DNA of 64,000 nt from an uncultured Francisella sp. (GTDB lineage Bacteria; Pseudomonadota; Gammaproteobacteria; Thiomicrospirales; Thiomicrospiraceae), in contig CAZFLX010000004.1 in the NCBI GenBank assembly GCA_964519885.1, forward strand, positions 8,106-72,105, written 5' to 3'. The notes beneath the pieces were generated by a model. The model was not told the DNA's origin. It did not search any database and worked only from the letters and a program-made list of their open reading frames with translations. The position numbers and the translations under genes are program-made. Shown in pieces: positions 37,940 to 58,026 of this stretch. The number at the start of each line of letters is the position of its first letter. Position 1 is the stretch's first letter.

Positions 37940-38311
37940 CTAAAAAACAGATGTGGCATCAAAGGCCGAGCGAATCCAGTGCGGCGATTGATGGTCAATG
38001 TCGAATAATACTACATCAAAGCGTAAGTTGCAGTGTTGATACTGTGGATGGGTAAGTAAAAAATAACGACTTGAGTGAATAATACGCTGTTGTTTTTTGA
38101 ATGTGATGCTTTCTGCGGCAGTGGCAAATTGGGTTTTAGAGCGGCTGCGGACTTCGACAAACACCAAGGTTTGGTCGGCTGTTAAACAGATCAAATCGAT
38201 TTCACCTCGCTTACAACGGAAGTTACGGCTGACGCAGTTAAGTCCTTGTTGGCTGAGATAGTCTGCGGCAAGAGATTCGGTGTTCTTGCCTAGGGTTACT
38301 GTGTTGGTCAT
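37940..38311 (-). CDS. yraN: YraN family (UPF0102) endonuclease-like protein
   Basis: 123 aa. ...GEIDLI...LVFVEVRSR... motif. 4-nt overlap with lpoA. Confidence 0.85.
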   Translation of the reverse strand: MTNTVTLGKNTESLAADYLSQQGLNCVSRNFRCKRGEIDLICLTADQTLVFVEVRSRSKTQFATAAESITFKKQQRIIHSSRYFLLTHPQYQHCNLRFDVVLFDIDHQSPHWIRSAFDATSVF

Positions 38312-39567: not shown

Positions 39568-39602
39568 GGTATTTTTCTGACAAATTAATAAGAGAGTCTT
39601 AA

Positions 39603-40475: not shown

Positions 40476-40504
40476 CTTTGTTGGTTTTGCCTGCTAGACT
40501 GCTT

Positions 40505-40868
40505 GCGAGTGGATTAAACAATCGCTGGCAGGTAACTGCTGGAGGAAAGTCCGGGCTCCATAGGGCAGGATGCTAGGTAACGCCTAGGCAGCGCGAGCTG
40601 ACGGAAAGTGCAACAGAGAGCTGAACCGCCGAAGTAACGCAAGTTACTGGTAAGGGTGAAAAGGTGCGGTAAGAGCGCACCGCAGGACTGGCAACAGGAC
40701 TGGCAGGGTAAACCCCATCCGGAGCAAGACCAAATAGGGGAACCATTCATGCTAGCATGAATAGAGATGGCCCATCTCGTTCCCGGGTAGGTTGCTACAG
40801 GTGTTGAGTGATCAACATCGCAGACGAATGATTGTTCACGACAGAACCCGGCTTATCGATCCACTCAA
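40505..40868 (+). ncRNA. rnpB: RNase P RNA, bacterial type A
   Basis: Universal blocks GGAGGAAAGTCCGGGCTCCATAGGGCA, AGGGTGAAAAGGTGCGGTAAGAGCGCACCG and ACAGAACCCGGCTTAT. P1 is GAGTGGAT/ATCCACTC and P2 is AACAATC/GATTGTT. End coordinates are accurate to within a few nt. Confidence 0.93.
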
Positions 40869-41179
40869 TTTATTTCCTCTATTTCCCCCATTTCTTTTCT
40901 TGTTATCCTCTGCAACATCACTTTTCTGGTGCTTTCTCTTAATGCAGGTTAAGGGGTTGTTTTGTTTTTGACAAATCTTAGCTTGTATGTTTTTTTTGTT
41001 TTAAACCACTACCTATTGTGTTTTTAGGCAATTCGTCTAAGTTATTCATTTTATTTATGAAACACAAAAAAAATTAAGGGTATTTTTTTTATCTATTTTC
41101 AGTTTAGCTAGGCTTTATAACTTATTGAATTTTAACTTTAATGATTGCGCTAAATTCAGTTTCAAGCCGTTTGCTTGCG

Positions 41180-41208
41180 TTGAGAAGTGGGTTTTGCGTT
41201 GGTAAAAT
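41180..41208 (+). promoter_or_regulatory. predicted sigma70 promoter of the dcw cluster (Pmra)
   Basis: TTGAGA (41180-85), a 17-nt spacer, then TAAAAT (41203-08), about 30 nt upstream of the mraZ start. Confidence 0.45.
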
Positions 41209-41243
41209 ATGGGTCAATGTGGTGAAAAGTGGGAATAAGTGGA
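41187..41243 (+). promoter_or_regulatory. phased GTGGN pentamer repeats; candidate MraZ operator
   Basis: GTGGG 41187, GTTGG 41198, ATGGG 41209, GTGGT 41219, GTGGG 41229 and GTGGA 41239. Spacings are 11, 11, 10, 10 and 10 nt, spanning the -10 box to the mraZ start codon. Confidence 0.45.
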
Positions 41244-41727
41244 AAAACAATCGTCCATTACCTTTCGCGGGTTACAAGCGGCGACCTTAGATGACAAAGG
41301 GCGCATGGCAGTACCCAAGCGATTCCGAGAAACCCTGCAACAAGTTTGTCAGGGCGAGGTGGTGTTGACGGTTGATATCCACGACGCTTGCTTACTATTG
41401 TACCCGATGGCTGATTGGCAGGCGATTGAAGCTAAGTTAATGGCAATGCCGAATATGGATCCAGCGACTCGTCGTGTGCAACGCTTGCTGTTAGGTCATG
41501 CGGTGGAAATGGACATGGATAACGCCGGGCGAATCTTAGTGCCTGATTTATTGCGTGACTATGCCCAGATGACCAAGGATGTGATGTTGGTTGGTCAGGG
41601 AAATAAAATTGAATTTTGGTCTGCTGAAACTTGGCAGACGCAGCGCCAAGCTTGGATTCAAGCAACACGTGATGAATTGGCGACTGAGTTGTCGGCCAAT
41701 AGTCCGTTAATGGGGTTGAGTTTGTAA
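41239..41727 (+). CDS. mraZ: transcriptional regulator MraZ
   Basis: GTG start. FRGLQAATLDDKGRMAVPKRFR and RRVQRLLLGHAVEMDMDNAGRILVP (two SpoVT/AbrB-like halves). Confidence 0.93.
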   Translation: MEKQSSITFRGLQAATLDDKGRMAVPKRFRETLQQVCQGEVVLTVDIHDACLLLYPMADWQAIEAKLMAMPNMDPATRRVQRLLLGHAVEMDMDNAGRILVPDLLRDYAQMTKDVMLVGQGNKIEFWSAETWQTQRQAWIQATRDELATELSANSPLMGLSL

Positions 41728-42632
41728 TGACGTCCGATGCTCATGCGCCCGTGCTATTTCAGGAGTGTTTGGATGCTTTGGCAATCAAGCCAGATGGCGT
41801 TTATATGGATGGGACTTTTGGTCGAGGCGGTCATAGTGCTGGCATCCTAGCTAGTTTGAGTAAACAAGGGCGGCTGTTGGCTTTTGATCAGGATGCGCAA
41901 GCGATTGCTTTTGGTCAAGCTAAGTTTGCCGGTGATGATCGTGTGCGTTTTGTGCATGCGAATTTTGCTGAGTTGGCGAGTCGTTTAAGCGAGCCAGTTG
42001 ACGGTATTTTGTTGGATTTGGGGGTTTCATCACCTCAACTAGATAATGCCGATCGAGGTTTTAGTTTTATGCAAAAAGGTCCGTTGGACATGCGCATGAA
42101 CACCACTGCGGGGCTAACACTAGCAGAGCGTTTGGCACAAACCAGTCTTGAAGAATTGACTTGGGTGCTGAAGACCTACGGCGAGGAGAAATTTGCGCGT
42201 CGCATTGCTACGGCTGTGTTAGCGGCACAGCAAGCAGGTGCTTTAACAGATACCTTGAGTTTGAGTGAGGTGATTGCTCAAGCGCAACCGGTGAAGGATA
42301 AATATAAACATCCGGCAACACGCAGTTTTCAAGCGTTGCGGATTTGGGTTAACGATGAGTTGGGCGTGTTGCAGCGGGTGTTGTCCGATGCGATTGATCA
42401 ACTCAAACCAGGTGGACGTTTAGCGGTAATTAGTTTTCATTCGTTAGAAGATCGCTTGGTAAAGCAGTTTTTTCGCGATCAGTCGCGTGGTCGTTACGAC
42501 GATGCCTTGCGACAGGTGGTGACAGAACCAAGGGTGAAGTCTTTAGGTAAGGTTTTTCCGAGCTTGGCAGAAACAGAGCAAAATCCACGTGCACGTAGTG
42601 CCATATTACGTGTGGTGGAACGGTTAATTTAA
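41727..42632 (+). CDS. rsmH: 16S rRNA (cytosine1402-N4)-methyltransferase
   Basis: HAPVLFQECLDAL, DGTFGRGGHS, LLDLGVSSPQLD and ISFHSLEDR. Confidence 0.95.
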   Translation: MTSDAHAPVLFQECLDALAIKPDGVYMDGTFGRGGHSAGILASLSKQGRLLAFDQDAQAIAFGQAKFAGDDRVRFVHANFAELASRLSEPVDGILLDLGVSSPQLDNADRGFSFMQKGPLDMRMNTTAGLTLAERLAQTSLEELTWVLKTYGEEKFARRIATAVLAAQQAGALTDTLSLSEVIAQAQPVKDKYKHPATRSFQALRIWVNDELGVLQRVLSDAIDQLKPGGRLAVISFHSLEDRLVKQFFRDQSRGRYDDALRQVVTEPRVKSLGKVFPSLAETEQNPRARSAILRVVERLI

Positions 42633-42666
42633 TGTAGTTGAACAGACAAAAACAGGGGTGGTTGTG

Positions 42667-43890
42667 ATGAAATTTGAACTCGAAGAAGCAGCTGTCAATA
42701 TGAATGGCATGCCGGTAATTAAAGTCATTGGTTTAGGCGGTGGCGGTTGTAACGCGCTTGACTATATGGTGCGTAGTCAAATTGTGGGTGTCGATTTCGT
42801 GGCAGCCAATACCGATGCTCAGGCATTAAATAAATCTAAAGCCAGTACACGCATTCAGTTGGGTAAGTCTGGCTTGGGTGCAGGTTCGAATGTTGAAAAA
42901 GGCAAGCAAGCGGCAACTGAAGACATTGACCGTGTGCGCAGTGCCTTAGACGGTACACATATGTTGTTCGTGACTGCGGGCATGGGCGGCGGTACGGGTA
43001 CTGGTTCTGCGCCAGTCGTTGCTAAGGCAGCGCGTGATATGGGTATTTTGACCGTTGGCGTGGTAACCAGTCCTTACAGCTTCGAAAAACGTGACAAAAT
43101 TGCTGCCGAAGGGATTGCTGATTTAGAGCAACACGTTGATTCATTGATTGTGATTCCGAACGAGAAGTTACACAAAGTAGCCGGTAAAAAATTAGGTATG
43201 TTAGATGCCTTTAATATGGCGAATAAGGTGCTACACAACGCAGTGCGTGGTGTTACCGAAGTGGTGACGCGTGAAGGCTTAATCAACGTTGACTTTGAAG
43301 ACGTGCGTACCATGATGGGTTTCCGTGGCTTAGCCATGATGGGTGTGGGTTCGGCAACCGGTGATGAGCGTGCGAAGAATGCGACCATGGCGGCTATTTC
43401 TAGTCCATTGTTAGAAGATATTAGCATTAATGGTGCGCGTGGTATTTTGGTCAACGTCGTCGCTTCGGATGACTTGGGTTCGGATGAGTTTGAAGAAGTG
43501 GGTCGCTTAATTGAAAGTTTTGCTCACCCAGAAGCGATGATTAAAATCGGTTTGGCGTTCGATGAAAATCTCGGTGATGAAGTGCAAGTCACCATTATTG
43601 CAACGGGATTAACTTCCTCAGCAGCTAAAGCGCAGCCAGTTGTTGAAACCGTTAAGCCGGTTGTTGCTGATGTTGCCCCAGTTGCAGAGCCAGCAGCGGC
43701 GCGTCCATCACGTTGGGCAACGCCTAACTTAACACCTTCTGCAACAGCACCTATGCCCAATATTCCAGGCTTGGTGGGTGGTAATATTGCCGGCTTGCGC
43801 CAAGGCGTACCTGGTGTGATTGGCGCCCCTCACAATGAAAGTCATGCCTACTTGAATATTCCCTCGTGGATTCGCAAGCAAGCCAACTAA
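42667..43890 (+). CDS. ftsZ: cell division protein FtsZ, in a non-canonical position within the dcw cluster
   Basis: Start set at ATG 42667 (AGGGG SD upstream). VIGLGGGGCNA, tubulin signature GMGGGTGTGSAPVVA, NVDFEDV, a P/A-rich linker and the C-terminal peptide YLNIPSWIRKQAN. Confidence 0.95.
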   Translation: MKFELEEAAVNMNGMPVIKVIGLGGGGCNALDYMVRSQIVGVDFVAANTDAQALNKSKASTRIQLGKSGLGAGSNVEKGKQAATEDIDRVRSALDGTHMLFVTAGMGGGTGTGSAPVVAKAARDMGILTVGVVTSPYSFEKRDKIAAEGIADLEQHVDSLIVIPNEKLHKVAGKKLGMLDAFNMANKVLHNAVRGVTEVVTREGLINVDFEDVRTMMGFRGLAMMGVGSATGDERAKNATMAAISSPLLEDISINGARGILVNVVASDDLGSDEFEEVGRLIESFAHPEAMIKIGLAFDENLGDEVQVTIIATGLTSSAAKAQPVVETVKPVVADVAPVAEPAAARPSRWATPNLTPSATAPMPNIPGLVGGNIAGLRQGVPGVIGAPHNESHAYLNIPSWIRKQAN

Positions 43891-43918
43891 TGGCTGGTTT
43901 GTTGAATTTACGCTTTAG

Positions 43919-44248
43919 ATGATGAAGAACGCCCCATTGCCCGGATTGTCAATTCTGTGGTCGTGGGGCGCTGTTGTCTGGATTTTATTGATTGTTTCAC
44001 TGATTGCTAGCGCGATTGCTGTGGTGTGGGTGAAGCATCAAGTCCGTTTAACCTCAACGCAGTTACATAAAAGTGTGAAGCAGGATTATGCCTTACGTGT
44101 GGAAGAAGGGCGTTTGCAACTCGAATACAATCATTTACTGTCTCGCACACGTATCGAACAGATAGCGCGCAATAAACTCGGTATGTCTCCCATTGGTCCC
44201 GCACAAGAGCGGGTGTTGTTGTTGCCGGAAGGATCTGTGCAGCCATGA
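43919..44248 (+). CDS. ftsL: cell division protein FtsL
   Basis: 109 aa, a single TM segment followed by a coiled coil (...LEYNHLLSRTRIEQIARNKLGM). Immediately precedes ftsI with a 4-nt overlap. Confidence 0.8.
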   Translation: MMKNAPLPGLSILWSWGAVVWILLIVSLIASAIAVVWVKHQVRLTSTQLHKSVKQDYALRVEEGRLQLEYNHLLSRTRIEQIARNKLGMSPIGPAQERVLLLPEGSVQP

Positions 44249-45903
44249 TGCGCGGAAGTCGTCGCGATAGCGTGATTTTTGGTTTGATTGTCCTGGCATT
44301 TTCTGCCTTGCTGTTTGGTGCTTGGCGGGTGATGATTGAGCAGTCTGCCTTTTTGCAACAAGAAGGGGATAAGCGTCAAATTCGTCATGTCACGCTACCT
44401 GCGGCACGGGGACCGATTTTAGATCGTCGTGGTGATGTGGTGGCGATGAGTACGCCGATGATTTCGGTGGCAATTGATCCGAAAACCCTAAAAGATCAAC
44501 CCGACTATCAAACCTCGCTTGCTTCGGCGCTGAAGATGCCGTTGGAAGTGGTGCAGGAAAAAATTGAAGCCAATGCGAATAAACGTTTTTATTACTTAAA
44601 ACGGGGATTGGCACCTCATGAAGCCCAACTGATTGAAGGTCTTCCGTTAGAAGGTGTGCACCTAGTGCCTGAGTTTAAGCGTTTTTATCCTTCGGGCGAG
44701 GTGATGTCTCATGTTATTGGCTTTACCAATATTGATGACAATGGCATCGAAGGTATTGAGCTAAGCTATAACGACTGGTTAAAAGGTAGTCCAGGAGTTC
44801 GTAAGGTTATTCGTGACAACCTTGGTCGTGTGATTGAAACGGTGGATGAAATTCGACCCGCCCATGAGGGCAAACCATTGAGCCTATCGATTGATCGTGA
44901 TTTACAGTTTTTTGCCTATCGAGCACTGAAAAGGGCGATGATTGAACATCAAGCCAAAGCAGCTGAGTTGGTGTTATTGGACGTGAAAACGGGTGAAATT
45001 TTGGCGATGGTGTCTCAGCCAGGTTTTAATCCGAATGACCGTTCACAAGTGACAGCCGCTCAAACACGTAATCGTGTGGTGACTGATGTGTTTGAGCCTG
45101 GTTCAACCATTAAACCTATTGTTATTGCGGGTGCTTTAGAATTAGGCAGTATTAAACCTGATGCGGTGATTGACACCGGCAATGGTAAATACAAATCGAA
45201 TGATAAGTTGGTGCGTGATCATCATGGTTATGGTCAGTTAGATTTAGCCGGCATTTTGCGTAAATCGAGTAACGTCGGCATGGTCAAAATTGTTGAAGGC
45301 ATGTCTCGTGAGGAGGTGTGGCGCTTTTTGCATTTCTCGGGTATCGGTCAGGAAACAGGAATTGTTTTCCCCGGTGAGCAGACCGGGCGTTTGCGAGATC
45401 CCCTGGAATGGTATCCGGTGACCAAAACCACTGCGGCATACGGCTATGGTTATAACGTGACGCTATTGCAGTTGGCGCGTGCCTATGCGGTTCTGGCGAA
45501 CGATGGTGTGCTTTTGCCTTCCACATTAATTAAATTAGAAGGTGCAGTGCCGCAGGGGAAACGTGTTTTTAAATCTGAACATGCACGTTTGTTGGTTCGG
45601 ATGATGGAAGAAGTAGTGGGTATGCAAGGCACAGGTCGAAAAGCGGCGATACCTGGTTATCGTGTTGCCGGTAAAACGGGGACGACTCGTAAAGCCAATA
45701 AAGGTTACGATTCTGATAAATATCGAGCTGTGTTCGTCGGCATTGCCCCTGCTACTGCACCCCGTTTTGTTTTGGCGGTGACAGTGGAAGAACCCAGTCG
45801 TGGTCAATATTATGGTGGTGAAGTGGCTGCCCCCATTTTCAAAGAAGTGATGGAAGAAACTCTGCGTTTGATGGCCATCGCTCCAGATGATGTGGCGAGA
45901 TAA
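44245..45903 (+). CDS. ftsI: peptidoglycan D,D-transpeptidase FtsI (PBP3)
   Basis: N-terminal TM segment plus the transpeptidase motifs STIKP, SSN and KTGT. Confidence 0.93.
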   Translation: MMRGSRRDSVIFGLIVLAFSALLFGAWRVMIEQSAFLQQEGDKRQIRHVTLPAARGPILDRRGDVVAMSTPMISVAIDPKTLKDQPDYQTSLASALKMPLEVVQEKIEANANKRFYYLKRGLAPHEAQLIEGLPLEGVHLVPEFKRFYPSGEVMSHVIGFTNIDDNGIEGIELSYNDWLKGSPGVRKVIRDNLGRVIETVDEIRPAHEGKPLSLSIDRDLQFFAYRALKRAMIEHQAKAAELVLLDVKTGEILAMVSQPGFNPNDRSQVTAAQTRNRVVTDVFEPGSTIKPIVIAGALELGSIKPDAVIDTGNGKYKSNDKLVRDHHGYGQLDLAGILRKSSNVGMVKIVEGMSREEVWRFLHFSGIGQETGIVFPGEQTGRLRDPLEWYPVTKTTAAYGYGYNVTLLQLARAYAVLANDGVLLPSTLIKLEGAVPQGKRVFKSEHARLLVRMMEEVVGMQGTGRKAAIPGYRVAGKTGTTRKANKGYDSDKYRAVFVGIAPATAPRFVLAVTVEEPSRGQYYGGEVAAPIFKEVMEETLRLMAIAPDDVAR

Positions 45904-45906
45904 CCG

Positions 45907-47337
45907 ATGCGGCAAACACAAGTGAAAAGCTGGCAGGCATTGTGCGAGTGGTTGGGTTTTGCCACTGAAACCGATACTAGGCCAATCGCTCAGCTAACAG
46001 CTGATTCTCGTGAGTGCCAAGCGGGTGATGTGTTTATTGCGCTGGCTGGCGTGCATCAGCATGGAGCCCAGTATGCAATAAAGGCCCGTGAGCAAGGGGC
46101 TTGGGTAATTTCCGATGTGATGGCGGAAGGCGTGCATTTGTGTGTGCCTGATTTATCAGATCGGTTAGGCGCATTATTGAATTGGTTTTATGATCATCCC
46201 AGTCAGTCCATGCGGTTGGTTGGTATTACGGGGACCAATGGCAAAACGTCGGTTAGTCATTATGTGGCACAGTGGTTGCATCAACTGGGTGAATCGGTGG
46301 CCGTGCTGGGCACTGTCGGTAATGGTCGTTGGGGTGAGCTTAAGCCTTCAACCCATACTACCATGGATGCACCTCGGTTGTATCGTCAACTGGCGCAGTG
46401 GCGTGATGAAGGCGTTGGGGTAGTGGTAATGGAAGTGTCTTCTCATGCCATTCATCAGAATCGTATTGCCGGTTTGACCTTTGCTGTGGTGGCGTTAACG
46501 CAAGTGACACGAGATCACTTAGATTATCATGGCACAGTAGAAGCTTATCGGGCTGAAAAAGCCCGTTTATTTACCGATTGGCCGGCGCAGGTTGCTGTGT
46601 TGAATCAAGATGATGGGTTAGGTGCTGAGTTAGCATTAAACTTGCCATCAGCATTGACCTATGCGGTGAAAGCCGAGGCGACCCTGATGGCAAAGTCGGT
46701 TGCTTGTATTGCTGAAGGTTTGCGGGTTGACCTAGTTTTGGATAAAACGTCCTGGCAGGGTGTGCTGCCGCTGTATGGGTTATTTAATATTGAAAATGTA
46801 TTGTGTGCTTTGGGTTGTATGCAGGGACTAGGCATTCCCTTAACATCTGTCGTGAAACACCTAGCCGCTACGCAACCGGTAGCAGGGCGTATGCAATGGG
46901 TGCGTCAACAACCTCGTGTGTTGGTGGATTATGCCCATACGCCCGATGCCTTAGAAAAAGCCTTGATAGCTTTACGCGCCCATAGTCAACAAGGCCGGTT
47001 ATGGCTGGTTTTTGGTGCGGGCGGTGATCGTGATAAGGGTAAGCGTCCCTTAATGGGGGCGGTTGCTAACCGTTATGCCGATGTGGTGATTGTTACCGAT
47101 GATAATCCGCGTTCAGAAGTGCTGGCGGATATTGCTGCGGCGATTTTACAAGCCTTAGATAAAGACAAAGCTACTTACATTAGTGATCGCTCTGCTGCTA
47201 TTTGTCGAGCCATTTTTAATGCTAAAGCGGATGATGTGGTATTGGTCGCGGGTAAGGGGCATGAAGACTACCAAGAGATCGGTGGTGTGCGCCATCCTTT
47301 TTCAGATAAAGAAGTGATTCAACAATGCATAACATGA
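45907..47337 (+). CDS. murE: UDP-N-acetylmuramoyl-L-alanyl-D-glutamate--2,6-diaminopimelate ligase
   Basis: GITGTNGKTS P-loop and a DNPR motif (VTDDNPRSE). Position in the dcw cluster. Confidence 0.93.
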   Translation: MRQTQVKSWQALCEWLGFATETDTRPIAQLTADSRECQAGDVFIALAGVHQHGAQYAIKAREQGAWVISDVMAEGVHLCVPDLSDRLGALLNWFYDHPSQSMRLVGITGTNGKTSVSHYVAQWLHQLGESVAVLGTVGNGRWGELKPSTHTTMDAPRLYRQLAQWRDEGVGVVVMEVSSHAIHQNRIAGLTFAVVALTQVTRDHLDYHGTVEAYRAEKARLFTDWPAQVAVLNQDDGLGAELALNLPSALTYAVKAEATLMAKSVACIAEGLRVDLVLDKTSWQGVLPLYGLFNIENVLCALGCMQGLGIPLTSVVKHLAATQPVAGRMQWVRQQPRVLVDYAHTPDALEKALIALRAHSQQGRLWLVFGAGGDRDKGKRPLMGAVANRYADVVIVTDDNPRSEVLADIAAAILQALDKDKATYISDRSAAICRAIFNAKADDVVLVAGKGHEDYQEIGGVRHPFSDKEVIQQCIT

Positions 47338-48767
47338 ATTGGAAGCTGTCAGACATCGCCACCGTGTTGGGAGTCAAGTTTGAAGCTGATGCTGATGTGT
47401 TGGTGCAACGCGTGATGACGGATAGTCGTCAGGTCACAGCGGGGGACTTGTTTGTTGCCCTAGTTGGTGATCGTGCCAATGGTCATGATTTCATTGAGGC
47501 GGTGGTTGCGCAAGGCGCTGTTGCCGTGTTAATCACACAAGCCCCAAAAGAACCGCTGGCTGTGCCTTACCTGTTGGTTAAAGATGCGGTGGTTGCTATG
47601 CAACAACTGGCGGCTGCTTGGCGGTTGAAGCATCAGCCTAACCCTGTGGTACTGATTACCGGTAGTAACGGTAAAACCAGTGTGAAGGAAATGATTCGTG
47701 CTGGTTTATCGGCACGTGACGGTGAGCGGGTTCTGGCAACTCAAGGTAACTTGAATAATCATTTGGGGTTGCCGATGACGCTCTTGTCATTGCGTGATGA
47801 GCATGAGTCGGCGGTGATTGAAGTGGGCGCGAATCATGTTGGTGAAATTGCTCAGCTAGGTCCTTTAGCCGCCCCCAGTATCGCGGTGATTACCAGTATT
47901 GGACGAGCCCATGTGGGTGAGTTTGGTTCTTTAGATAAGATTAAACAAGCGAAAGGTGAAATTTGGCAGGCCTTGCCCGCAACGGGTGGTGTAGCGATTG
48001 TTCCGATTGTCGAAGCCAATAGTGAGTTTGATGGTTGGTCTTGTTGGCAAGATGCCTTAGCGTCACATCGAGTGATTGCCTTTGGTGATATGGCGAACGT
48101 GAGTGTTAATCGGGGCTGGCATGCTTGGGTGGGTGTGGTTAAGCGAGAAGTTACGGTTGAAGGGCAGCGCGTTCAGTTAGCAACCAGTGATTGGGGTGAG
48201 GCGACGCTTGATTTGGCGATTGCTGGTGCGCATCAAGCCAATAATCTGGCGGCAGTGGTTGCGGTGTTGTTGCAAGCGGGATTAAGTTGGCAAGCAATTC
48301 AAACAGGCTTAAATCGGGTTGCTTTGCCAGGTGGGCGTTTACGATTGTTATCGCCTTTGCCTGACTTGCTGATCATTGATGATACCTATAATGCCAATGC
48401 CAGCTCAATGAAAGCCGCTATTGGCGTGTTGATGGAACAGTCGGCACAAACGCATGCTTTTGTCATGGGACCCATGGGCGAATTGGGTGATGAGTCTGAA
48501 GCCTTGCACCAAGAGGTGGTTGATTATGCGAGTGCGGCGGGGGTGAATGCGTTTTTGGCATCAGGGCCACTGAGTGAACTCTTGGTTAGTCGTTTTGGCG
48601 GCGGTACGGCCAATGATTCACCTGAAGTGCTGGCAGATGCACTATGGCAAGCTTATCAACAAAGGGGTTCGTTGGCGGTTCTGGTGAAAGGTTCTCGTTC
48701 TGCCCGCATGGAGCGGGTGGTGGAAGCATTAATGGCGCGCGCAAGTCGCTGCCAGTCAGACAAATAA
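47334..48767 (+). CDS. murF: UDP-N-acetylmuramoyl-tripeptide--D-alanyl-D-alanine ligase
   Basis: Start set at ATG 47334 (ATGA overlap with the murE stop). ITGSNGKTS P-loop. Confidence 0.92.
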   Translation: MNWKLSDIATVLGVKFEADADVLVQRVMTDSRQVTAGDLFVALVGDRANGHDFIEAVVAQGAVAVLITQAPKEPLAVPYLLVKDAVVAMQQLAAAWRLKHQPNPVVLITGSNGKTSVKEMIRAGLSARDGERVLATQGNLNNHLGLPMTLLSLRDEHESAVIEVGANHVGEIAQLGPLAAPSIAVITSIGRAHVGEFGSLDKIKQAKGEIWQALPATGGVAIVPIVEANSEFDGWSCWQDALASHRVIAFGDMANVSVNRGWHAWVGVVKREVTVEGQRVQLATSDWGEATLDLAIAGAHQANNLAAVVAVLLQAGLSWQAIQTGLNRVALPGGRLRLLSPLPDLLIIDDTYNANASSMKAAIGVLMEQSAQTHAFVMGPMGELGDESEALHQEVVDYASAAGVNAFLASGPLSELLVSRFGGGTANDSPEVLADALWQAYQQRGSLAVLVKGSRSARMERVVEALMARASRCQSDK

Positions 48768-48780
48768 AATGGGTTAAGTA

Positions 48781-49863
48781 ATGATTTTAGAATTAATGGC
48801 TTGGTTACAGCAATGGGTGGGCAGTTTTAACCTATTCAGTTATGTGACCTTTCGTGGTTTGATGGCCGCTTTGACGGCACTGGTGATTTCACTTTGGGCA
48901 GGTCCAGCAGTGATTCATTGGTTAACGCGCTTAAAAGTGGGTCAAGCGGTTCGCACCGATGGTCCACAAACTCACTTGGTAAAAAGCGGTACGCCGACTA
49001 TGGGTGGCGTGCTGATCTTGTTGTCAGTGATTGTCAGTGCCTTGTTGTGGAGTGATTGGGATAGTCGTTATGCTTGGCTGTTGATTGTGATGACACTGGG
49101 GTTTGGTGCCATCGGTTTTGTCGATGACTACAAAAAAGTCGTTTATAAAGATCCGAAGGGGTTGGCATCGCGTTGGAAATACTTTTGGCAGTCGGTATTG
49201 GGTTTAGTGGCGGCTTATTTAATGTTCCAATGGGCTTATTTGCCAGCTCACACGGAATTGCTCATTCCCTTTGCGAAAACCTTGGTATTTGAGTTGGGAC
49301 CTTGGTTTGTTTTAATGGCTTATTTTGTCATTGTCGGCACCTCGAATGCGGTCAATTTGACCGATGGATTAGATGGCTTGGCGATTATGCCCGCAGTGTT
49401 GGTATCGGCCGCTTTGTCGGTATTTGCGTATTTGTCAGGTCATGCGGTGTTTGCCGATTATCTGAATATTCCGTTTATTCCGGGTGCCGGAGAAGTGGCT
49501 ATTTTTGGCGCTGCCTTGGTTGGTGCTGGGCTGGGTTTCTTGTGGTTCAATACTTATCCGGCACAAGTGTTTATGGGCGATGTGGGTGCTTTAGCCATTG
49601 GCGCAGCACTGGGACTCATGGCAATTATGGTACGCCAAGAGTTGGTGTTGGTCATTATGGGCGGCATTTTTGTTATGGAAACCTTGTCAGTGATGATTCA
49701 AGTTGCTTCTTTCAAATTAACGGGCAAGCGCGTTTTTCGCATGGCACCCTTGCATCATCATTTTGAATTAAAGGGTTGGCCAGAACCGAAAGTGATTGTG
49801 CGCTTTTGGATTATCACACTGATTTTAGTATTGGTTGGTTTGGCCAGTTTGAAGGTGCGCTAA
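48781..49863 (+). CDS. mraY: phospho-N-acetylmuramoyl-pentapeptide transferase
   Basis: 360 aa, polytopic. [20 protein letters not shown] and APLHHHFEL. Confidence 0.96.
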
Positions 49864-49866
49864 GTT

Positions 49867-51219
49867 ATGTCGGTATTGGTAGCGGGATTAGGGATTTCGG
49901 GACAAGCTGCCTTGCGCTTTTTGGTAGCGCAAGGTGATAGCTGTATTTTTGCTTATGATACGCGTGCCGAGTTGGATATTCAGGCCTTACAGAGTCGTTT
50001 TCCTCAAGTCACTTTTGCCTGTGGTGAGCTACCACCAAACTGGGCAGCACAAGTGAAAATGTTAGTCCTCAGTCCAGGCATTGATCCTAAAACTGCATGG
50101 GTGCAGTCGTTGGTGAAAGCGGGTGTGAGTTTAGTGGGCGAAATTGAGCTTTTTTGTCGCTCGATGCCGGCGGAAAAACCTTTAGTCGCGATTACGGGTA
50201 GTAATGGTAAAAGTACTGTTACCACCTTGGTGGGCGAATTACTGAAGGCGCAGGGTTATCAGGTTGCCGTGGGTGGAAATTTGGGTACACCGGCTTTGGA
50301 TTTACTCATGCAGTCTGCCGATGCCGATGTGTTTGTGTTGGAGTTATCCAGTTTTCAACTCGAAACCACGCAGAGTTTGTTAGCCACATCGGCGACGGTG
50401 CTCAACATTAGCCCTGATCATCTCGATCGTTATGGTGATATGGCAACTTACATTGCAGCTAAAGCGCCCATTTATCACATGACGCGTTTAGCGGTGGTGA
50501 ATCGTGATGACGAAATTGCAGCAGGCTTAGCCGATTCACGCGTTGCTCAGATAGGTTTTTCGTTGTCGGAGCCGAAAGCATTAAGTGATTATGGTTTGTG
50601 TCTGCGCGAAGGTGAGGAGTGGTTGTGTCAGCGATCAGATGGGCAGTCCCCCTACCAATGGATTATGAAAAGTAACGAAATTGCCTTGATGGGACGACAC
50701 AATATCAGTAATTGTTTGGCAGCCTTAGCTTTGTGTCAGGCTTTTCAGCTCAGCTTGACGGCCATTAAAAGTGTGCTTACAAGCTTTACGGGTTTGGCGC
50801 ATCGTGCTCAATTAGTACGCACGCGAGCCGGCGTGCATTGGGTTAACGACTCCAAAGGAACCAATGTCGGTTCCACGGTCACGGCACTACACAGTTTAGG
50901 CGCGCAAGCACCCATTATTTTATTAGCCGGTGGGCAAGGCAAGGGACAAGACTTTTCTGAGTTGTCGCAACCCTTGGCAGATGTTGCTCGTGCGCTGATT
51001 GTTTTTGGTGAAGATGCTGAACAGATTGCTCAGCATGCACCCAGCAGTTGCTCTGTGCATCGTGTTGTTGACCTGCTGGAAGCGGTAACGCTAGCAGATG
51101 CTCTGTCAAAAGCGGGCGATGTGGTGTTATTGTCACCAGCCTGTGCCAGTTTTGATCAATTTCGCAGTTACGTTCATCGTGGCGAAGTTTTTACTCAAGC
51201 CGTGATGCAGCTAGCATGA
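49867..51219 (+). CDS. murD: UDP-N-acetylmuramoylalanine--D-glutamate ligase
   Basis: ITGSNGKSTV P-loop and NDSKGTN. Confidence 0.94.
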   Translation: MSVLVAGLGISGQAALRFLVAQGDSCIFAYDTRAELDIQALQSRFPQVTFACGELPPNWAAQVKMLVLSPGIDPKTAWVQSLVKAGVSLVGEIELFCRSMPAEKPLVAITGSNGKSTVTTLVGELLKAQGYQVAVGGNLGTPALDLLMQSADADVFVLELSSFQLETTQSLLATSATVLNISPDHLDRYGDMATYIAAKAPIYHMTRLAVVNRDDEIAAGLADSRVAQIGFSLSEPKALSDYGLCLREGEEWLCQRSDGQSPYQWIMKSNEIALMGRHNISNCLAALALCQAFQLSLTAIKSVLTSFTGLAHRAQLVRTRAGVHWVNDSKGTNVGSTVTALHSLGAQAPIILLAGGQGKGQDFSELSQPLADVARALIVFGEDAEQIAQHAPSSCSVHRVVDLLEAVTLADALSKAGDVVLLSPACASFDQFRSYVHRGEVFTQAVMQLA

Positions 51220-52478
51220 TGAAGTTGATGAAACGCGGATTCCAGGTAAGACCTTGGCGGTTGGATGATAATGCCCCCATTGACTGGGCGCTGGTTGGGG
51301 TGATGTTGATGCTCTCCTGCCTGGGCGTAGTGATGGTGGCATCTGCATCTGTGGCGATTGCCGAGAAACGCTTCGGTATGGAGTTGCGTTATGTGTTACA
51401 ACAGTTGGCTTTCTTATTGGGTTCGTTGTTCATTGCGGTGTGGGTGATTCAAAAAACTACTCTCAATTGGTGGAAAGAAAACCGGGGTTTACTGTTACTC
51501 ATCGCCATGGTGTTGGTGATGATGACGTTGGTGTTAGGTCGAGAAATTAACGGTGCTAAACGCTGGCTGAGTTTGGGTTTTTTCAATTTGCAACCTTCTG
51601 AATTTTTGAAGTTGGTGGTGATTGTCTTTATGGCCGCCTACATCGAAAAGAACTTCCAGCAGCATCAAGATGCGCAAGGTAATCGTGATTGGAAAATGGA
51701 AAAGAAACGGCAGATGCAAGCCATTAAACTGCTGATGTTGCCATTAATTCCCATTTTTCTATTGCTATTATTGCAGCCCGATTTTGGTAGCCTAATGGTG
51801 GTGTTGTTACTGGTATTTGCCATGTTGCTCATTGCGGGTGCTCCGCTACGCTTGTTGTTATCGGTTTTACCCTTGGGGCTGGCGCTGGTTATTGTCATCA
51901 TTATTGAACCCTATCGCTTGGCACGGGTAGTCAGCTTTTTAGATCCTTGGAAGGATGCACAGAATACCGGTTATCAGCTCACGCATTCGCTAATGGCATT
52001 AGGCCGAGGTGATTGGTTTGGTGTCGGGTTGGGTAATAGTGTGGAAAAGTTGTTTTATCTGCCCGATGCGCATACCGATTTTTTATTTGCCATTTATGGC
52101 GAAGAATTTGGTTTCATTGGTGTGGTTGCCTTGGTATTGCTCTATTTGGTGATGATTTGGCGTATTTTTCGTATTGGTCGAGTGGCAGCAGAGCGAGAAC
52201 AAACTTTCGCAGCCTTGATTTGCTATGGCGTGGGTGCATGGGTTGCAGTGCAGGCATTGATTAATATGGGCGCTAATTTGGGGTTGTTGCCGACCAAAGG
52301 CTTAACCTTACCTTTAGTTAGCTATGGCGGTTCCAGTTTGTTAATGTCCATGCTGGCATTAGGCTTGGTATTACGTATCGATTGGGAAAATCGTCACGCT
52401 CATTTGGTGGTGGTCATGCCACCCGTTACGCCGACAACGACTGATTTAGTGGAACAGCCAATGGAAAAAACATCATGA
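51216..52478 (+). CDS. ftsW: peptidoglycan glycosyltransferase FtsW (SEDS family)
   Basis: Polytopic. LQPSEFLK, LQPDFG and LPTKGLTLPLVSYGGSS. Confidence 0.93.
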   Translation: MMKLMKRGFQVRPWRLDDNAPIDWALVGVMLMLSCLGVVMVASASVAIAEKRFGMELRYVLQQLAFLLGSLFIAVWVIQKTTLNWWKENRGLLLLIAMVLVMMTLVLGREINGAKRWLSLGFFNLQPSEFLKLVVIVFMAAYIEKNFQQHQDAQGNRDWKMEKKRQMQAIKLLMLPLIPIFLLLLLQPDFGSLMVVLLLVFAMLLIAGAPLRLLLSVLPLGLALVIVIIIEPYRLARVVSFLDPWKDAQNTGYQLTHSLMALGRGDWFGVGLGNSVEKLFYLPDAHTDFLFAIYGEEFGFIGVVALVLLYLVMIWRIFRIGRVAAEREQTFAALICYGVGAWVAVQALINMGANLGLLPTKGLTLPLVSYGGSSLLMSMLALGLVLRIDWENRHAHLVVVMPPVTPTTTDLVEQPMEKTS

Positions 52479-53572
52479 AGGTGATGATTGCCGCAGCGGG
52501 TACCGGTGGGCATGTTTTTCCTGGTTTGGCGGTTGCTGAATTATTGAAGAAACAGGGTCATGCGGTGGTGTGGCTAGGTACAGAACAGGGGAAGGTGGTG
52601 CAGTGGGTTGAGCAAGCCAGTGTGCCCTTGTGCACGATTGCCATAGGTGGCGTGCGCGGTAAGGGCTGGAAGCATTGGCTAAAAGCACCCTTTCAACTGT
52701 TCGGTGCGTGGCGGCAAGCGGTCGATCTACTGCGACAAGAAGATCCCGATGTTATGTTGGTGATGGGGGGCTATGTTTCGGCACCAGCTGGCTTGGCTGC
52801 CCGTTGGTTGCGTATCCCGTTGGTGGTACACGAACAAAACTCGATTGCGGGTTTGAGTAACCGCCTATTAGCCCCTTTCAGTCAGTCGGTGCTGTTGGGT
52901 TTGCCCTTGGCGTCCTCGCCATTCGGGTGGGGAAAGGCGCGCTGGGTAGGTAATCCTTTGCGCGCGATGTTGCAAAGACAAGGTAAAACTCATGCCTCAC
53001 AACCGCTTAGACTCTTAATTTTTGGCGGTAGCCAAGGAGCGCAGTTCCTCAATGAGCGTTTGCCAGAGGTGATGCGTGATTGGTCAGCTCGTCACGAACT
53101 AACTGTGTGGCATCAAACAGGCAGTCACCAGCAAGCCTTGGTTGAGCTGGCTTATCAACAAGCTGGCGTAACAGCGCGAGTGAGTGAGTTTATTCAAGAT
53201 ATGGGAGAAGCCTATGCTTGGGCTGATCTGGTCATCGCCCGTGCAGGTGCTTTAACCGTAACTGAATTGCAGCAAGTGGCACGCCCTGCGTTATTCATTC
53301 CCTTTCCTCATGCGGTAGATGACCATCAGTACACCAACAGTTTGGCTTTGGTAAAACTCGGTGCTGCCCAAGTGTTGCGGCAATCCGAAGCCAGTGTTGA
53401 GCAGCTGCGAGAATACTTAAGTGATTATATTTATAATCCTAAGGTTTTAAGTCAGTGCTATGCTGTACTGAATGCCCAAGCAGAAAACACCGCAGCCGTT
53501 CGCGTGGTGCAAGTTTTAACGGATTTGGTCATGCCATCGACCAACAAACAAAAAAGAACAACAGGAAATTAA
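52475..53572 (+). CDS. murG: undecaprenyldiphospho-muramoylpentapeptide beta-N-acetylglucosaminyltransferase
   Basis: AAGTGGHVFPGLAVA, ARAGALTVTEL and DDHQYTN. Confidence 0.94.
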   Translation: MKVMIAAAGTGGHVFPGLAVAELLKKQGHAVVWLGTEQGKVVQWVEQASVPLCTIAIGGVRGKGWKHWLKAPFQLFGAWRQAVDLLRQEDPDVMLVMGGYVSAPAGLAARWLRIPLVVHEQNSIAGLSNRLLAPFSQSVLLGLPLASSPFGWGKARWVGNPLRAMLQRQGKTHASQPLRLLIFGGSQGAQFLNERLPEVMRDWSARHELTVWHQTGSHQQALVELAYQQAGVTARVSEFIQDMGEAYAWADLVIARAGALTVTELQQVARPALFIPFPHAVDDHQYTNSLALVKLGAAQVLRQSEASVEQLREYLSDYIYNPKVLSQCYAVLNAQAENTAAVRVVQVLTDLVMPSTNKQKRTTGN

Positions 53573-53575
53573 GCT

Positions 53576-54964
53576 ATGAGCATGTCTCAACGCGTGCGTC
53601 GCATTCATTTGGTGGGTATTGGTGGTTCTGGCATGTCGGGCATTGCCGAAGTGCTGCTCACGCAAGGCTTTGTCGTTAGTGGTTCGGATGCCAAAGCCTC
53701 AGCGGTTACAGCGCATTTAACCGCTTTAGGGGCGCAAGTCAGTATTGGTCATGATGCCCATTTGGTTGAAGATGCTGACGTGGTGGTGGCTTCAACGGCG
53801 ATTGCCAAAGATAACCCCGAATTGGTGGCGGCACGCATGGCGCGTGTACCAGTCATTCCCCGTGCTGAAATGTTGGCTGAAATGATGCGTAGTAAGTTTG
53901 GTATTGCTGTGGCAGGTACACATGGCAAAACCACGACCACCAGTTTAATTGCTAGTGTGTTGGCAGAAGCAGGCTTAGATCCGACTTATGTCATCGGCGG
54001 GCGTCTCAATAAAACCGGTACTCATGCCAGCTTAGGTGCGAGTAATTATTTGGTAGCGGAAGCAGATGAGTCAGATGCCTCTTTCCTCTACTTAAAACCG
54101 ATGATGAGCATTGTCACCAATATTGATGCCGACCACATGGAAACCTATGGTGGTAGCTTTGAAGTTTTGACCGATACCTTTTCACAATTCTTGCATCATT
54201 TGCCCTTTTATGGTTTAGCGATCGTGTGTGTCGATGATGCTGGCGTGCAAGGCTTGTTGCCACGTATTACCCGTCCGATTGTGCGTTATGGGCTGAGTGA
54301 AGCTGCCGATATTCGTGCCACGAACATCCAGCACCAAGGGTTGCGCTCGACCTTTACAGTGCAAGCCTATCAGCAAGAGCCATTCTATATTACCTTGAAT
54401 ATTCCCGGTGAACATAATGTGCGTAATGCCTTGGCGACCATTGCTGTTGCCTTAGAATTGGGTGTCGATGTAAACGCTATTCAACGCGCTCTGGCGCAAT
54501 TTCATGGTGTCGGTCGTCGCTTTGATGTGTATGCCAATCGTTCTTTGTTCGACAAGTCAGTGACGCTGGTGGATGACTATGGTCACCATCCAACAGAATT
54601 GGCAGCGGTATTAAATACAGCAAGAACGGCTTTTGCTCAGCAGCGTTTGGTCTCTGTCTTTCAACCGCATCGCTACACACGTACACGTGATCTGCTCGAT
54701 GACTTTGCTGCCGCTTTAATGCTGGCCGATGTGGTGGTGTTACTGCCTGTTTATTCGGCGGGTGAGTCCCCAATTGCTGGCGCAGATAGCAAAGCCATTG
54801 CTCAAGCCATGCGCCTGCGTGGCTTCCAAAGTGTGGTGGTGGCAGATAGTATGGTGCAACTCAATGCCGTGGCGAAAGGTCTGCTCTTGGATGGTGATGT
54901 GGTGTTGACCATGGGCGCGGGTGATATTGGACAACTGAGTAAACAATGGCGGGAGGAAGCCTGA
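53576..54964 (+). CDS. murC: UDP-N-acetylmuramate--L-alanine ligase
   Basis: IHLVGIGGSGMSGIAEVL and VAGTHGKTTTTS. Confidence 0.95.
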   Translation: MSMSQRVRRIHLVGIGGSGMSGIAEVLLTQGFVVSGSDAKASAVTAHLTALGAQVSIGHDAHLVEDADVVVASTAIAKDNPELVAARMARVPVIPRAEMLAEMMRSKFGIAVAGTHGKTTTTSLIASVLAEAGLDPTYVIGGRLNKTGTHASLGASNYLVAEADESDASFLYLKPMMSIVTNIDADHMETYGGSFEVLTDTFSQFLHHLPFYGLAIVCVDDAGVQGLLPRITRPIVRYGLSEAADIRATNIQHQGLRSTFTVQAYQQEPFYITLNIPGEHNVRNALATIAVALELGVDVNAIQRALAQFHGVGRRFDVYANRSLFDKSVTLVDDYGHHPTELAAVLNTARTAFAQQRLVSVFQPHRYTRTRDLLDDFAAALMLADVVVLLPVYSAGESPIAGADSKAIAQAMRLRGFQSVVVADSMVQLNAVAKGLLLDGDVVLTMGAGDIGQLSKQWREEA

Positions 54965-55878
54965 TGCAGAACAAACCAATCATTGCCGTGTTACGTGGTG
55001 GCAGTGCGAATGAGCGTGAAGTTTCATTGCGTTCCGGCGCAGCGGTTGTGGAAGGACTTCAACAGGCTGGTTATCAGGTGCTGGATTGGCGCGTCGATGA
55101 TTTGGCCCAGGTGATTGCGTTAGTGCAACAAGCACCGCGTCCTTTGTTGGTGTTTAATGTGTTGCATGGTCGTGGCGGTGAAGATGGCCAGTTACAAGCC
55201 CTGCTAGATGTGTTGGAAGTGCCTTACACGGGCAGTGGCATGTTGGCGAGCGCCTTATCGATGGATAAAGTGGTGACCAAACGCCTATGGCAATCGATGG
55301 GATTGCCGACGGCTGATTATTACGAAGTCACACAGTCAAGCTTATCGACCTTTGACGTGGACGCAGTGCGTTATCCAGTAATGGTGAAACCCGCACGCGA
55401 GGGGTCGAGTATCGGCATGTTCAAAGTCGATAGTGCGGATAAGATGCGTGATGCCTTAACGCAAGCGCTGACTTTTGATGACCATGTGCTGGTAGAGTCT
55501 TGGATTGATGGTGCTGAATATACGTTAGCCATTTTGGGTGATCAGGCTTTGCCGATGATTCGGTTGAAAACACCGAATGTGTTTTACGATTTTGAAGCCA
55601 AGTATCAAGCCAATACCACCGAATATCTCTGCCCTTGTGGGCTGTCTGCGGAAGTAGAAGCAGCAATTCAAACCTTGGCGTTGCAAGCCTTTCACGCTTT
55701 GGGCGCTAAAACATGGGGAAGGATCGACGTGATGATTGATCAGCAAGGTCAAGCTTGGTTGCTGGAATTGAACACCGTCCCGGGTATGACCGATCACAGC
55801 CTCGTGCCTATGGCGGCAAAACAGGCGGGATTAAGCTTTAGCCAACTGGTTGATCGCTTGGTGCAGTTGTCGGTATGA
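54964..55878 (+). CDS. ddl: D-alanine--D-alanine ligase
   Basis: Start set at ATG 54964 (TGATG junction with murC). VLHGRGGEDG, EGSSIGM and LELNTVPGMT. Confidence 0.93.
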   Translation: MQNKPIIAVLRGGSANEREVSLRSGAAVVEGLQQAGYQVLDWRVDDLAQVIALVQQAPRPLLVFNVLHGRGGEDGQLQALLDVLEVPYTGSGMLASALSMDKVVTKRLWQSMGLPTADYYEVTQSSLSTFDVDAVRYPVMVKPAREGSSIGMFKVDSADKMRDALTQALTFDDHVLVESWIDGAEYTLAILGDQALPMIRLKTPNVFYDFEAKYQANTTEYLCPCGLSAEVEAAIQTLALQAFHALGAKTWGRIDVMIDQQGQAWLLELNTVPGMTDHSLVPMAAKQAGLSFSQLVDRLVQLSV

Positions 55879-56642
55879 CTTTTTTATCGCGTACATGGCA
55901 AAAGCTAAAACGCTGGTTTATATGGTTTGGCAAGGCAGTTTTGTTAACGGTTTTTGCTGGGGTTCTGACTTGGGCAGGGCTACAAGCATGGCAGCTATGG
56001 AATGGTCATCAGCAGGGTGAGTTAATCCAAGTCAAGTTAGTGAATGAAAATAGTAAAGTGAGCGAAGCTGAATTAACTGAACTTTTGCGTCCGCAATTAG
56101 GCATAGGTTTTTGGCAATTAGACTTGCCCAGTATTCGTCAGTTGGTCGAAAGTCATCCTTGGGTCGCGCATGCTGAAGTATCAAGGTTTTGGCCGAGTAC
56201 CTTACGCGTCGAAGTGGTTGAGCAAATACCGGTTGCCCGTTGGGGTGAGACAGGTTTTGTCAACCAGATAGGTGAGATTTTTTATCCGAATCAAGGGGTT
56301 GGATTTGAAGGGTTAATCCGTTTGTCGGCGGTGAATCCAGATCCCTTGGCGGTATTAGCTATGCTTAAGCAAGTGCTAGATTTGATTAATCCTTATGGGC
56401 TACACGTGACTTCTATGCATCGCATGGCCGATGAAAGTTGGCACATTTGGCTGGTAAATGGTGATGAGTGGTTGTTGCCAAAACAAGATGCCATTCAAGA
56501 TTTGAAACAGTTGCTGGTACTTTATGGCAGTATTCCCAAGCAAGATGGGACAAAGATGCGTATTGACCTTCGTTATCGTGATGGTTTTGCGGTAAAATGG
56601 CAACCAATAGAAAATCCCACATCCTCAGATGCTCAACCCTAG
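55875..56642 (+). CDS. ftsQ: cell division protein FtsQ
   Basis: N-terminal TM segment followed by a POTRA-like region (...HPWVAHAEVSRFWPSTLRVEVVEQ). Position between ddl and ftsA. Confidence 0.85.
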   Translation: MTFLSRTWQKLKRWFIWFGKAVLLTVFAGVLTWAGLQAWQLWNGHQQGELIQVKLVNENSKVSEAELTELLRPQLGIGFWQLDLPSIRQLVESHPWVAHAEVSRFWPSTLRVEVVEQIPVARWGETGFVNQIGEIFYPNQGVGFEGLIRLSAVNPDPLAVLAMLKQVLDLINPYGLHVTSMHRMADESWHIWLVNGDEWLLPKQDAIQDLKQLLVLYGSIPKQDGTKMRIDLRYRDGFAVKWQPIENPTSSDAQP

Positions 56643-57937: not shown

Positions 57938-57988
57938 TATTGATTTAAGTCGCTTGAACAGCGCTTGGTCAGTTTACGACACGCCTTG

Positions 57989-57997
57989 TGTTATAAT
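57989..57997 (+). promoter_or_regulatory. candidate extended -10 promoter element for lpxC
   Basis: TGTTATAAT lies 30 nt upstream of the lpxC ATG. No good -35 element. Confidence 0.35.
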
Positions 57998-58026
57998 GAG
58001 CCAATTTTTTCATGGAAAGTGAACCG

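Follow-up and report, generated by a model that had tools for sequence, protein, structure and literature searches.

A promoter-proximal ftsZ in the dcw cluster of a group of sulfur-oxidising Gammaproteobacteria

The overall order of genes in the cluster for division and for the cell wall (dcw), as well as the adjacency of ftsA and ftsZ within it, belong to the best-conserved gene arrangements of bacteria, and it has been argued that the order plays a part in the coupling of division with wall synthesis. In Escherichia coli K-12 the distal part of the cluster has the canonical order ftsQ-ftsA-ftsZ-lpxC, and promoters inside ddlB, ftsQ and ftsA contribute to ftsZ dosage. Here we describe a dcw cluster in which ftsZ lies between rsmH and ftsL, close to the promoter-proximal end. 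The cluster was analysed in a 64-kb stretch of contig CAZFLX010000004.1, referred to throughout as the window, for which an earlier sequence-only reading had proposed that ftsZ had moved. The same order is found in a series of related loci, and it appears to be an old inherited trait of a group of sulfur-oxidising Gammaproteobacteria, a lineage marker and not a one-off oddity. It is a lineage-wide variant of a known gene cluster and no new system.

The closest described case of an ftsZ near the promoter of the cluster (Pmra) is the reduced cluster of the mollicutes, mraZ-mraW-(ftsA or MG_223)-ftsZ. According to the published accounts, MraZ acts there on a short operon that contains ftsZ (PMC8475190; 10.1101/2025.09.01.673419; PMC12957436), and the two arrangements thus share an ftsZ that lies within a few genes of an MraZ-regulated promoter. 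In the mollicutes, however, this proximity came about through the loss of genes for wall synthesis, with ftsA or MG_223 retained ahead of ftsZ, whereas the window keeps every dcw gene and its ftsZ has jumped 13 of them, away from ftsA. Our literature search found no paper on the order of ftsZ in Thiomicrospira, Hydrogenovibrio or Thiomicrorhabdus, and the survey data of Megrian et al. 2022 (Nat Microbiol) may list it. Many public genomes with annotation show the arrangement plainly.

Gene order in the window and in related genomes

Genes were called from the list of open reading frames (ORFs) and from NCBIfam and Pfam profile models (Table 1). The cluster shares with that of E. coli K-12 the same 16 genes, co-oriented and contiguous, with mraZ-rsmH first, lpxC and secA after, and a Pmra-type promoter with GTGG boxes upstream. 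It differs in that ftsZ is third and not fifteenth. Canonically ftsL directly follows rsmH, and in the window ftsZ stands between them; at the distal end, where ftsQ-ftsA-ftsZ-lpxC would be expected, the ftsA stop codon is followed directly by lpxC. Gone are the overlap of rsmH with ftsL and the direct contacts of ftsZ with ftsA and with lpxC, and no positional equivalent is possible for the ftsZ promoters embedded in ddlB, ftsQ and ftsA of E. coli or for its StfZ antisense region. The sequence confirms the coordinates of the sequence-only reading, together with its gaps of 34 nt and 28 nt on the two sides of ftsZ and its spacer of 89 nt between ftsA and lpxC. This last length follows from the placement of the lpxC start at 58027: the match to the LpxC model begins at residue 7 of an ORF opening at 58012, which favours the ATG of MLKQRT at 58027.

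Table 1. Positions of the features in and around the dcw cluster of the window, with the evidence for each.
Feature	Position	Strand	Evidence or remark
rnpB (RNase P RNA, class A)	40506..40871	+	Rfam RF00010, 321 bits, full length; directly upstream of the dcw promoter region
Pmra-like sigma-70 promoter	41180..41208	+	TTGAGA, 17-nt spacer, TAAAAT, TG before the -10; 10/12 consensus
Three GTGG boxes, putative MraZ operator	41219..41242	+	Read in the sequence; starts at 41219, 41229 and 41239
mraZ	41239..41727	+	TIGR00242, 155 bits; Pfam MraZ
rsmH (16S rRNA m4C1402 methyltransferase)	41727..42632	+	TIGR00006, 341 bits
rsmH-ftsZ junction, 34 nt	42633..42666	+	Shine-Dalgarno AGGGGTGG 8 nt before the ATG
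ftsZ, 407 aa, relocated	42667..43890	+	TIGR00065, PF00091, PF12327, translation
Stem-loop, ftsZ stop codon within the loop	43874..43902	+	RNAfold, -13.0 kcal/mol
ftsZ-ftsL junction, 28 nt	43891..43918	+	Sequence
ftsL	43919..44248	+	TIGR02209, 62.7 bits; Pfam FtsL
ftsI-murE-murF-mraY-murD-ftsW-murG-murC-ddl-ftsQ	44245..56642	+	Canonical order, contiguous, co-oriented
ftsA	56651..57937	+	TIGR01174, 449 bits; longest ORF begins at 56597
ftsA-lpxC spacer, the vacant canonical ftsZ slot, 89 nt	57938..58026	+	Sequence
Extended -10 TGTTATAAT, putative lpxC promoter	57989-57997	+	In the ftsA-lpxC spacer
lpxC	58027..58941	+	TIGR00325, 389.6 bits; secA next in the cluster

To judge from its sequence, the product is an ordinary FtsZ, with no new protein or mechanism, and the assignment and hallmarks given in the sequence-only reading hold. 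It scores 361.5 bits (E 5e-108) against the NCBIfam equivalog model TIGR00065, above the curated cut-off of 295.2, and contains both Pfam domains, PF00091 (Tubulin) at residues 18-172 (148 bits) and PF12327 (FtsZ_C) at residues 221-315 (104.8 bits). The translation was compared with a nucleotide signature GGGTG(T/S)G, a T7 loop NxDxx(D/E) and a consensus D/N-IPxFLRxQ for the C-terminal peptide that binds FtsA and ZipA. It contains GLGGGGCNA, the nucleotide-binding AGMGGGTGTGS and the T7 synergy loop NVDFEDV, then a P/A-rich linker from about residue 325 to 390 and the C-terminal peptide YLNIPSWIRKQAN, which in the FtsZ of relatives reads IPSFIRRQAD or IPAFLRRQAD. Because this orthodox protein keeps the peptide that docks FtsA and ZipA-type anchors, it presumably works as usual. 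Its top matches among solved structures (E about 1e-100, ~340-346 bits) are entries that we take to be the FtsZ of Klebsiella, E. coli and Pseudomonas. The structures that we take to be the FtsZ of Bacillus (295 bits), Mycobacterium and Staphylococcus rank below these gammaproteobacterial entries.

The N-terminus of the protein carries a signature that accompanies the relocation. Almost all FtsZ proteins of the relocated clade start with MKF (or MRF/MNF, in some preceded by a few additional residues) and have the motif G(M/L)P(V/I/K)IKV(I/V)G (window 42667-42730), an N-terminus about 5 residues longer than the canonical gammaproteobacterial MFE...AVIKVIG.

Related loci were compared by tblastn with the dcw proteins of the window. 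Eleven Thiotrichales-type loci (L001-L011, one genome per species) encode an FtsZ from 98% down to 50% identical to that of the window, and ten of them have the order mraZ-rsmH-ftsZ-ftsL-ftsI; in L011, at 50% identity, mraZ-rsmH-ftsZ-ftsI was matched and ftsL fell below the filters. Context look-ups gave the relocated order in Thiomicrorhabdus aquaedulcis (AP018722), in two assemblies of Hydrogenovibrio kuenenii, in a mid-clade metagenome contig and in Sulfurivirga caldicuralii, which together with the eleven make up 16 related loci. Further look-ups via FtsA showed ftsQ-ftsA-lpxC-secA without ftsZ in a Hydrogenovibrio-type locus (L017) and in Galenea microaerophila (L019). Outside this clade the canonical order was seen in four of the nearest FtsA relatives, picked from the tail of the best 120 FtsA matches, namely Gammaproteobacteria bacterium AB-CW1 and three metagenome contigs; in one of these outgroup loci, L021, ftsQ-ftsA-ftsZ is followed by a gene other than lpxC. 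The comparison of the clade with these outgroups and with E. coli supports the proposed move of ftsZ from the slot between ftsA and lpxC to the junction of rsmH and ftsL.

The cultured Thiomicrospiraceae (T. aquaedulcis, H. kuenenii, S. caldicuralii and G. microaerophila) resemble the window in the order mraZ-rsmH-ftsZ-ftsL-ftsI and in the adjacency of ftsA and lpxC, and their FtsZ falls in one clade with that of the window. They differ in the sequence of FtsZ, with an identity of 50-53%, and in the spacer between rsmH and ftsZ, which measures 81-128 nt as against 34 nt in the window. Within the window clade this gap is 32-50 nt, except in L007 (111 nt), and with the same exception its sole element is a conserved Shine-Dalgarno sequence, GGTGG/GGATGG. 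The gap between ftsZ and ftsL is 18-32 nt in those window-clade relatives for which an ftsL start could be assigned.

Gene order is no statistical pattern in which chance would matter, and the control that counts is independent assemblies. As the same order recurs across these, the relocation is neither a misassembly nor specific to one genome. The idea that the true place of ftsZ is behind ftsA, and that the assembler moved it, deserves practically no credence. Nothing was found in its favour, though the window probably belongs to a metagenome-assembled genome (MAG), all close relatives being labelled as MAGs; the order is concordant in all 16 independently assembled loci, which come from different projects, the 2.44-Mb T. 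aquaedulcis sequence AP018722 and multi-Mb contigs of cultured strains show it, and the ftsZ-free junction of ftsA and lpxC is reproduced in Hydrogenovibrio and Galenea. The synteny comparison with close relatives that the sequence-only reading had suggested therefore finds the relocated order to be common to the related loci. Treating it as a peculiarity of one genome has to be given up, the order being shared by the Thiomicrospira/Thiomicrorhabdus/Hydrogenovibrio/Sulfurivirga group with its many public annotated genomes. That reading had itself held that an order already normal for the lineage would be no novelty, and on that view the novelty is gone.

Origin and age of the relocation

A neighbour-joining tree of FtsZ (27 sequences, 357 columns, 300 replicates, supports counted as bipartitions) separates 20 sequences of the relocated clade from seven canonical ones with 87% bootstrap support; of these 20, 13 had their gene context checked and seven were assigned by similarity. 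The window clade, a mid clade and the union of the two are each supported at 100%, the Thiomicrospiraceae at 93%, and FtsZ of the gammaproteobacterial type is separated from Bacteroidales and Aminicenantes sequences at 99%. A tree of FtsA gives the same partition into relocated and canonical sequences (95% support), and FtsZ appears on this ground to have evolved in step with FtsA, though the two genes lie 13 genes apart. The composition of ftsZ falls inside the range of 17 neighbouring genes: its GC content is 0.487 (neighbours 0.447-0.515), its GC at third codon positions (GC3) 0.431 (0.406-0.527) and its codon-usage distance 0.134 (0.100-0.178). The impression by eye that the gene shares the composition and codon style of its neighbours is in this way upheld.

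Given that the two trees agree and that the composition of ftsZ is native-like, we consider it quite probable that ftsZ was transposed once, internally, in a distant ancestor and has been inherited vertically since. A recent event or an acquisition was rejected on the lineage-wide conservation, the trees and the composition. The preference of the sequence-only reading for an internal rearrangement over acquisition is borne out by the FtsZ tree, in which the clade forms a monophyletic group within gammaproteobacterial FtsZ and whose branching is congruent with that of FtsA. One of its arguments drops out, since the absence of insertion sequences and repeats at the junctions is uninformative for an event so old and lineage-wide.

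Two other histories bear on this. In the first, the gene described here would be an extra paralogue, with the housekeeping ftsZ elsewhere, outside the dcw cluster. FtsZ-like paralogues occur in some bacteria, and a tblastn search with FtsZ, limited to the 64-kb window, found no second ftsZ there. The protein, however, scores above the equivalog cut-off, both its linker and its C-terminal docking peptide are retained, the canonical slot is vacant across the clade, and the FtsZ tree mirrors that of FtsA, as expected of a co-evolving orthologue. Each named species contributes one FtsZ to the best 120 matches, a list that ends at about 50% identity and that a divergent copy would escape. A paralogue is on these grounds highly improbable. 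In the second history an ftsZ of foreign origin entered behind rsmH, and loss of the native copy behind ftsA followed. Such a xenologous replacement would yield an identical gene order, and the FtsZ of the window is ~49-55% identical to canonical gammaproteobacterial outgroups, little below its identity of 53-58% to the Thiomicrospiraceae members of the clade, which limits the resolution of the tree. The clade nevertheless nests with gammaproteobacterial FtsZ and away from the non-proteobacterial outgroups, its internal branching into window clade, mid clade and Thiomicrospiraceae matches the FtsA tree, and the best solved-structure matches are the entries presumed to be Klebsiella, E. coli and Pseudomonas FtsZ. 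Its composition is also native-like, though an ancient insert would have ameliorated anyway. Replacement by a foreign gene is accordingly judged improbable.

For the single internal transposition, the event would be placed in the common ancestor of the uncultured Thiotrichales lineage of the window and the Thiomicrospira/Thiomicrorhabdus/Hydrogenovibrio/Sulfurivirga/Galenea group. It would amount to two neighbouring segments changing places, ftsZ (1.2 kb) and ftsL to ftsA (14 kb). A conceivable route is a tandem duplication of ftsL to ftsZ, followed by loss of the first ftsL to ftsA and of the second ftsZ, which at no stage would leave the cell without an essential gene and of which no trace remains. 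A remnant of ftsZ between ftsA and lpxC was considered and dismissed; with a gap of merely 89 nt none could be found there. Several points tell against this history: the route by duplication and loss is purely conjectural, the FtsZ and FtsA trees are distance-based with few outgroups, and the search for ftsZ copies was confined to the 64-kb window.

The clade keeps all dcw genes and the integrity of the cluster and yet has ftsZ in a promoter-proximal position across family-level divergence. It would thus represent a natural experiment in which the supply of FtsZ needs neither promoters embedded in ftsQ and ftsA nor linkage to ftsA. The order also serves as a clean rare-genomic-change marker that ties the uncultured Thiotrichales lineage to the Thiomicrospiraceae, and cultured members of the group (Hydrogenovibrio, Thiomicrorhabdus) exist for experimental work.

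Promoter region and control of ftsZ

Pmra has been described as a sigma-70 promoter that lies upstream of mraZ and is accompanied by about three GTG(G/T) boxes at intervals of 6 nt (PMC12957436). A promoter and three such boxes are present at 41180-41242 of the window and are conserved in relatives. The boxes are arranged as GTGG-TGAAAA-GTGG-GAATAA-GTGG, with 6 nt between them, eleven bases downstream of the -10 hexamer, and represent a putative MraZ operator. Across the window-clade alignment all three stay invariant. Among ten aligned relatives the -35 hexamer is likewise invariant and the -10 reads TAAAAT in eight, with TAGAAT in L006; the window and L001 differ at one adjoining base. Noncoding identity is 0.74-0.92 at the promoter region as against 0.1-0.4 further upstream. 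The earliest codon at which mraZ could start, the GTG at 41239, falls on the third GTGG box (window 41239-41260), and no ATG, GTG or TTG occurs between this codon and the conserved FRG motif of mraZ. Because this first GTG overlaps the box, both the exact start codon and the transcript's 5' end are uncertain.

Between this promoter and ftsZ few candidate signals were detected. In a motif scan of the window neither rsmH nor the 34-nt gap before ftsZ gave a sigma-70-like site, and that gap gave no terminator-like site either. A weak 9/12 sigma-70 match lies inside mraZ at 41372, and three terminator-like matches fall inside mraZ and rsmH (one of them in rsmH), a number that does not exceed the expectation from shuffled sequences. 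In H. kuenenii (L015) and S. caldicuralii (L025) a single near-consensus promoter lies upstream of ftsZ, in front of mraZ (TTGACA-17-TATAGT, 11/12), and the motif scan found no sigma-70-like site in rsmH of either.

The most economical reading of this layout, and a somewhat probable one, is that Pmra transcribes ftsZ as its third cistron, which would put the gene under MraZ. In the lineage of the window ftsZ would then be read as the third gene of a transcript from an MraZ-controlled Pmra, and FtsZ dosage would be set by proximity to the promoter, by a strong ribosome-binding site of its own and perhaps by the stem-loop at its stop codon. What changed would be the transcriptional neighbourhood of ftsZ and not the protein. 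As the sequence-only reading also proposed, the relocation may have altered the FtsA:FtsZ ratio.

An alternative accepts the relocation and has ftsZ transcribed mainly from its own promoter, located in rsmH or in the longer gap of the Thiomicrospiraceae, with Pmra and MraZ contributing little; this we regard as possible, though rather unlikely. Most dcw genes of E. coli have internal promoters in the upstream coding sequence, and in two stretches of rsmH, 42299-42344 and 42434-42494, the synonymous sites show unusual conservation, with values at third codon positions of 0.74-0.80 in the latter stretch against a mean of 0.56. A promoter at 42434-42494 was not accepted because the stretch coincides with the strongly conserved SFHSLEDR motif, the most conserved peptide motif of RsmH. 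Promoters in rsmH that are unlike the sigma-70 consensus are possible, and the longer Thiomicrospiraceae gap could hold signals of its own. In H. kuenenii it contains a weak terminator-like hairpin after rsmH and, given this hairpin and the longer gap, coupling to Pmra may differ within the clade. While all these points weigh against transcription of ftsZ chiefly from Pmra, an own promoter is opposed by the negative motif scans of rsmH in the window, L015 and L025 and by the short gap in all window-clade loci but one.

The proposed Pmra transcript would include the stem-loop at the end of ftsZ, whose 5' arm consists of the last ftsZ codons and whose 3' arm is noncoding. Its predicted energy compares with -7.2 +/- 2.8 kcal/mol for shuffles of the 3' arm (RNAfold), with p = 0.03 in the window, p = 0.00 in L003, p = 0.03 in L006 and p = 0.003 in H. 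kuenenii. These four of 12 relocated loci reach p < 0.05 and two more p < 0.1. Similar hairpins are present in L003, L006, L007, L008 and the Hydrogenovibrio locus L015; none was found in L024, L025 or the canonical outgroups, and the element is not universal in the clade. A gap-free alignment puts the two arms in shifting registers. Among relatives the last codons and the noncoding 3' arm change together, pairing AGCCA with TGGCT, AGCCGA with TCGGCT and AGCTAA with TTAGCT. Any role for the stem-loop, as a stabiliser of the 3' end or as an attenuator of read-through into ftsL, is speculative.

A further and more doubtful proposal, which we put forward tentatively, is that with ftsZ in third place FtsZ dosage becomes a direct output of MraZ and Pmra, that the stem-loop keeps FtsZ in excess over the products of ftsL to ftsA, and that the distal murC-ftsA-lpxC block is left free to split. 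If this were so, the stoichiometry of FtsZ and FtsA would have been solved otherwise than by the ftsQAZ promoter array of E. coli, and the distal block, no longer feeding ftsZ, could break away as in Hydrogenovibrio and Galenea.

Flanking genes and further observations

Within the run of genes from ftsI to ftsQ, ftsI and ftsQ were named by NCBIfam, and murE to ddl by ORF size, by the E. coli order and by the Pfam labels of orthologues at related loci. The start of ftsA is probably at 56651, its homologues being 425-428 aa long (96% query coverage). The extended -10 in the spacer between ftsA and lpxC suggests that lpxC retained a promoter of its own.

Upstream, the dcw cluster is preceded by an lpoA/LppC-like gene on the minus strand, rsmI and rnpB (window 38308-40871), and the LppC-rsmI neighbourhood is also found in T. 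aquaedulcis and Sulfurivirga. By this comparison the upstream flank of the cluster appears to have stayed unmoved while ftsZ changed place. Downstream, a 146-aa ORF on the minus strand between lpxC and secA (window 58948-59388) has no Pfam or NCBIfam match. In Galenea and the outgroups the same position is occupied by a DciA-family gene (PF05258), and the ORF may be a divergent DciA.

The distal part of the cluster is itself arranged differently within the clade. In Hydrogenovibrio and Galenea the block murC-ddl-ftsQ-ftsA-lpxC is split from mraZ to murG, in contrast to the window, L024 and Sulfurivirga (L025), where the cluster is unbroken and murG and murC are contiguous. In L017 (1-4245) and L019 (1-4321) murC-ddl-ftsQ-ftsA-lpxC-secA is preceded by unrelated genes (compare window 52475-54964), namely sufBD and an aminotransferase in one of the two, and in the other TPR and type II secretion genes. 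This break between murG and murC is a second, later rearrangement within the clade.

Two observations concern the deposited records. In T. aquaedulcis AP018722 (L014 8953-9872) rsmH matches in two frames, residues 2-217 in frame 1 and 212-300 in frame 3, which reflects either a frameshift or a sequencing error in AP018722, and no gene is called there. Several MAGs with this locus (L001, L003, L005, L008 and L009) carry the record label 'uncultured Francisella sp.' or even that of 'Francisella tularensis subsp. holarctica'. In both FtsZ and FtsA they come closest to Thiomicrospiraceae, with no Francisella protein among the best 120 matches, and the Francisella labels look like taxonomy-mapping errors.

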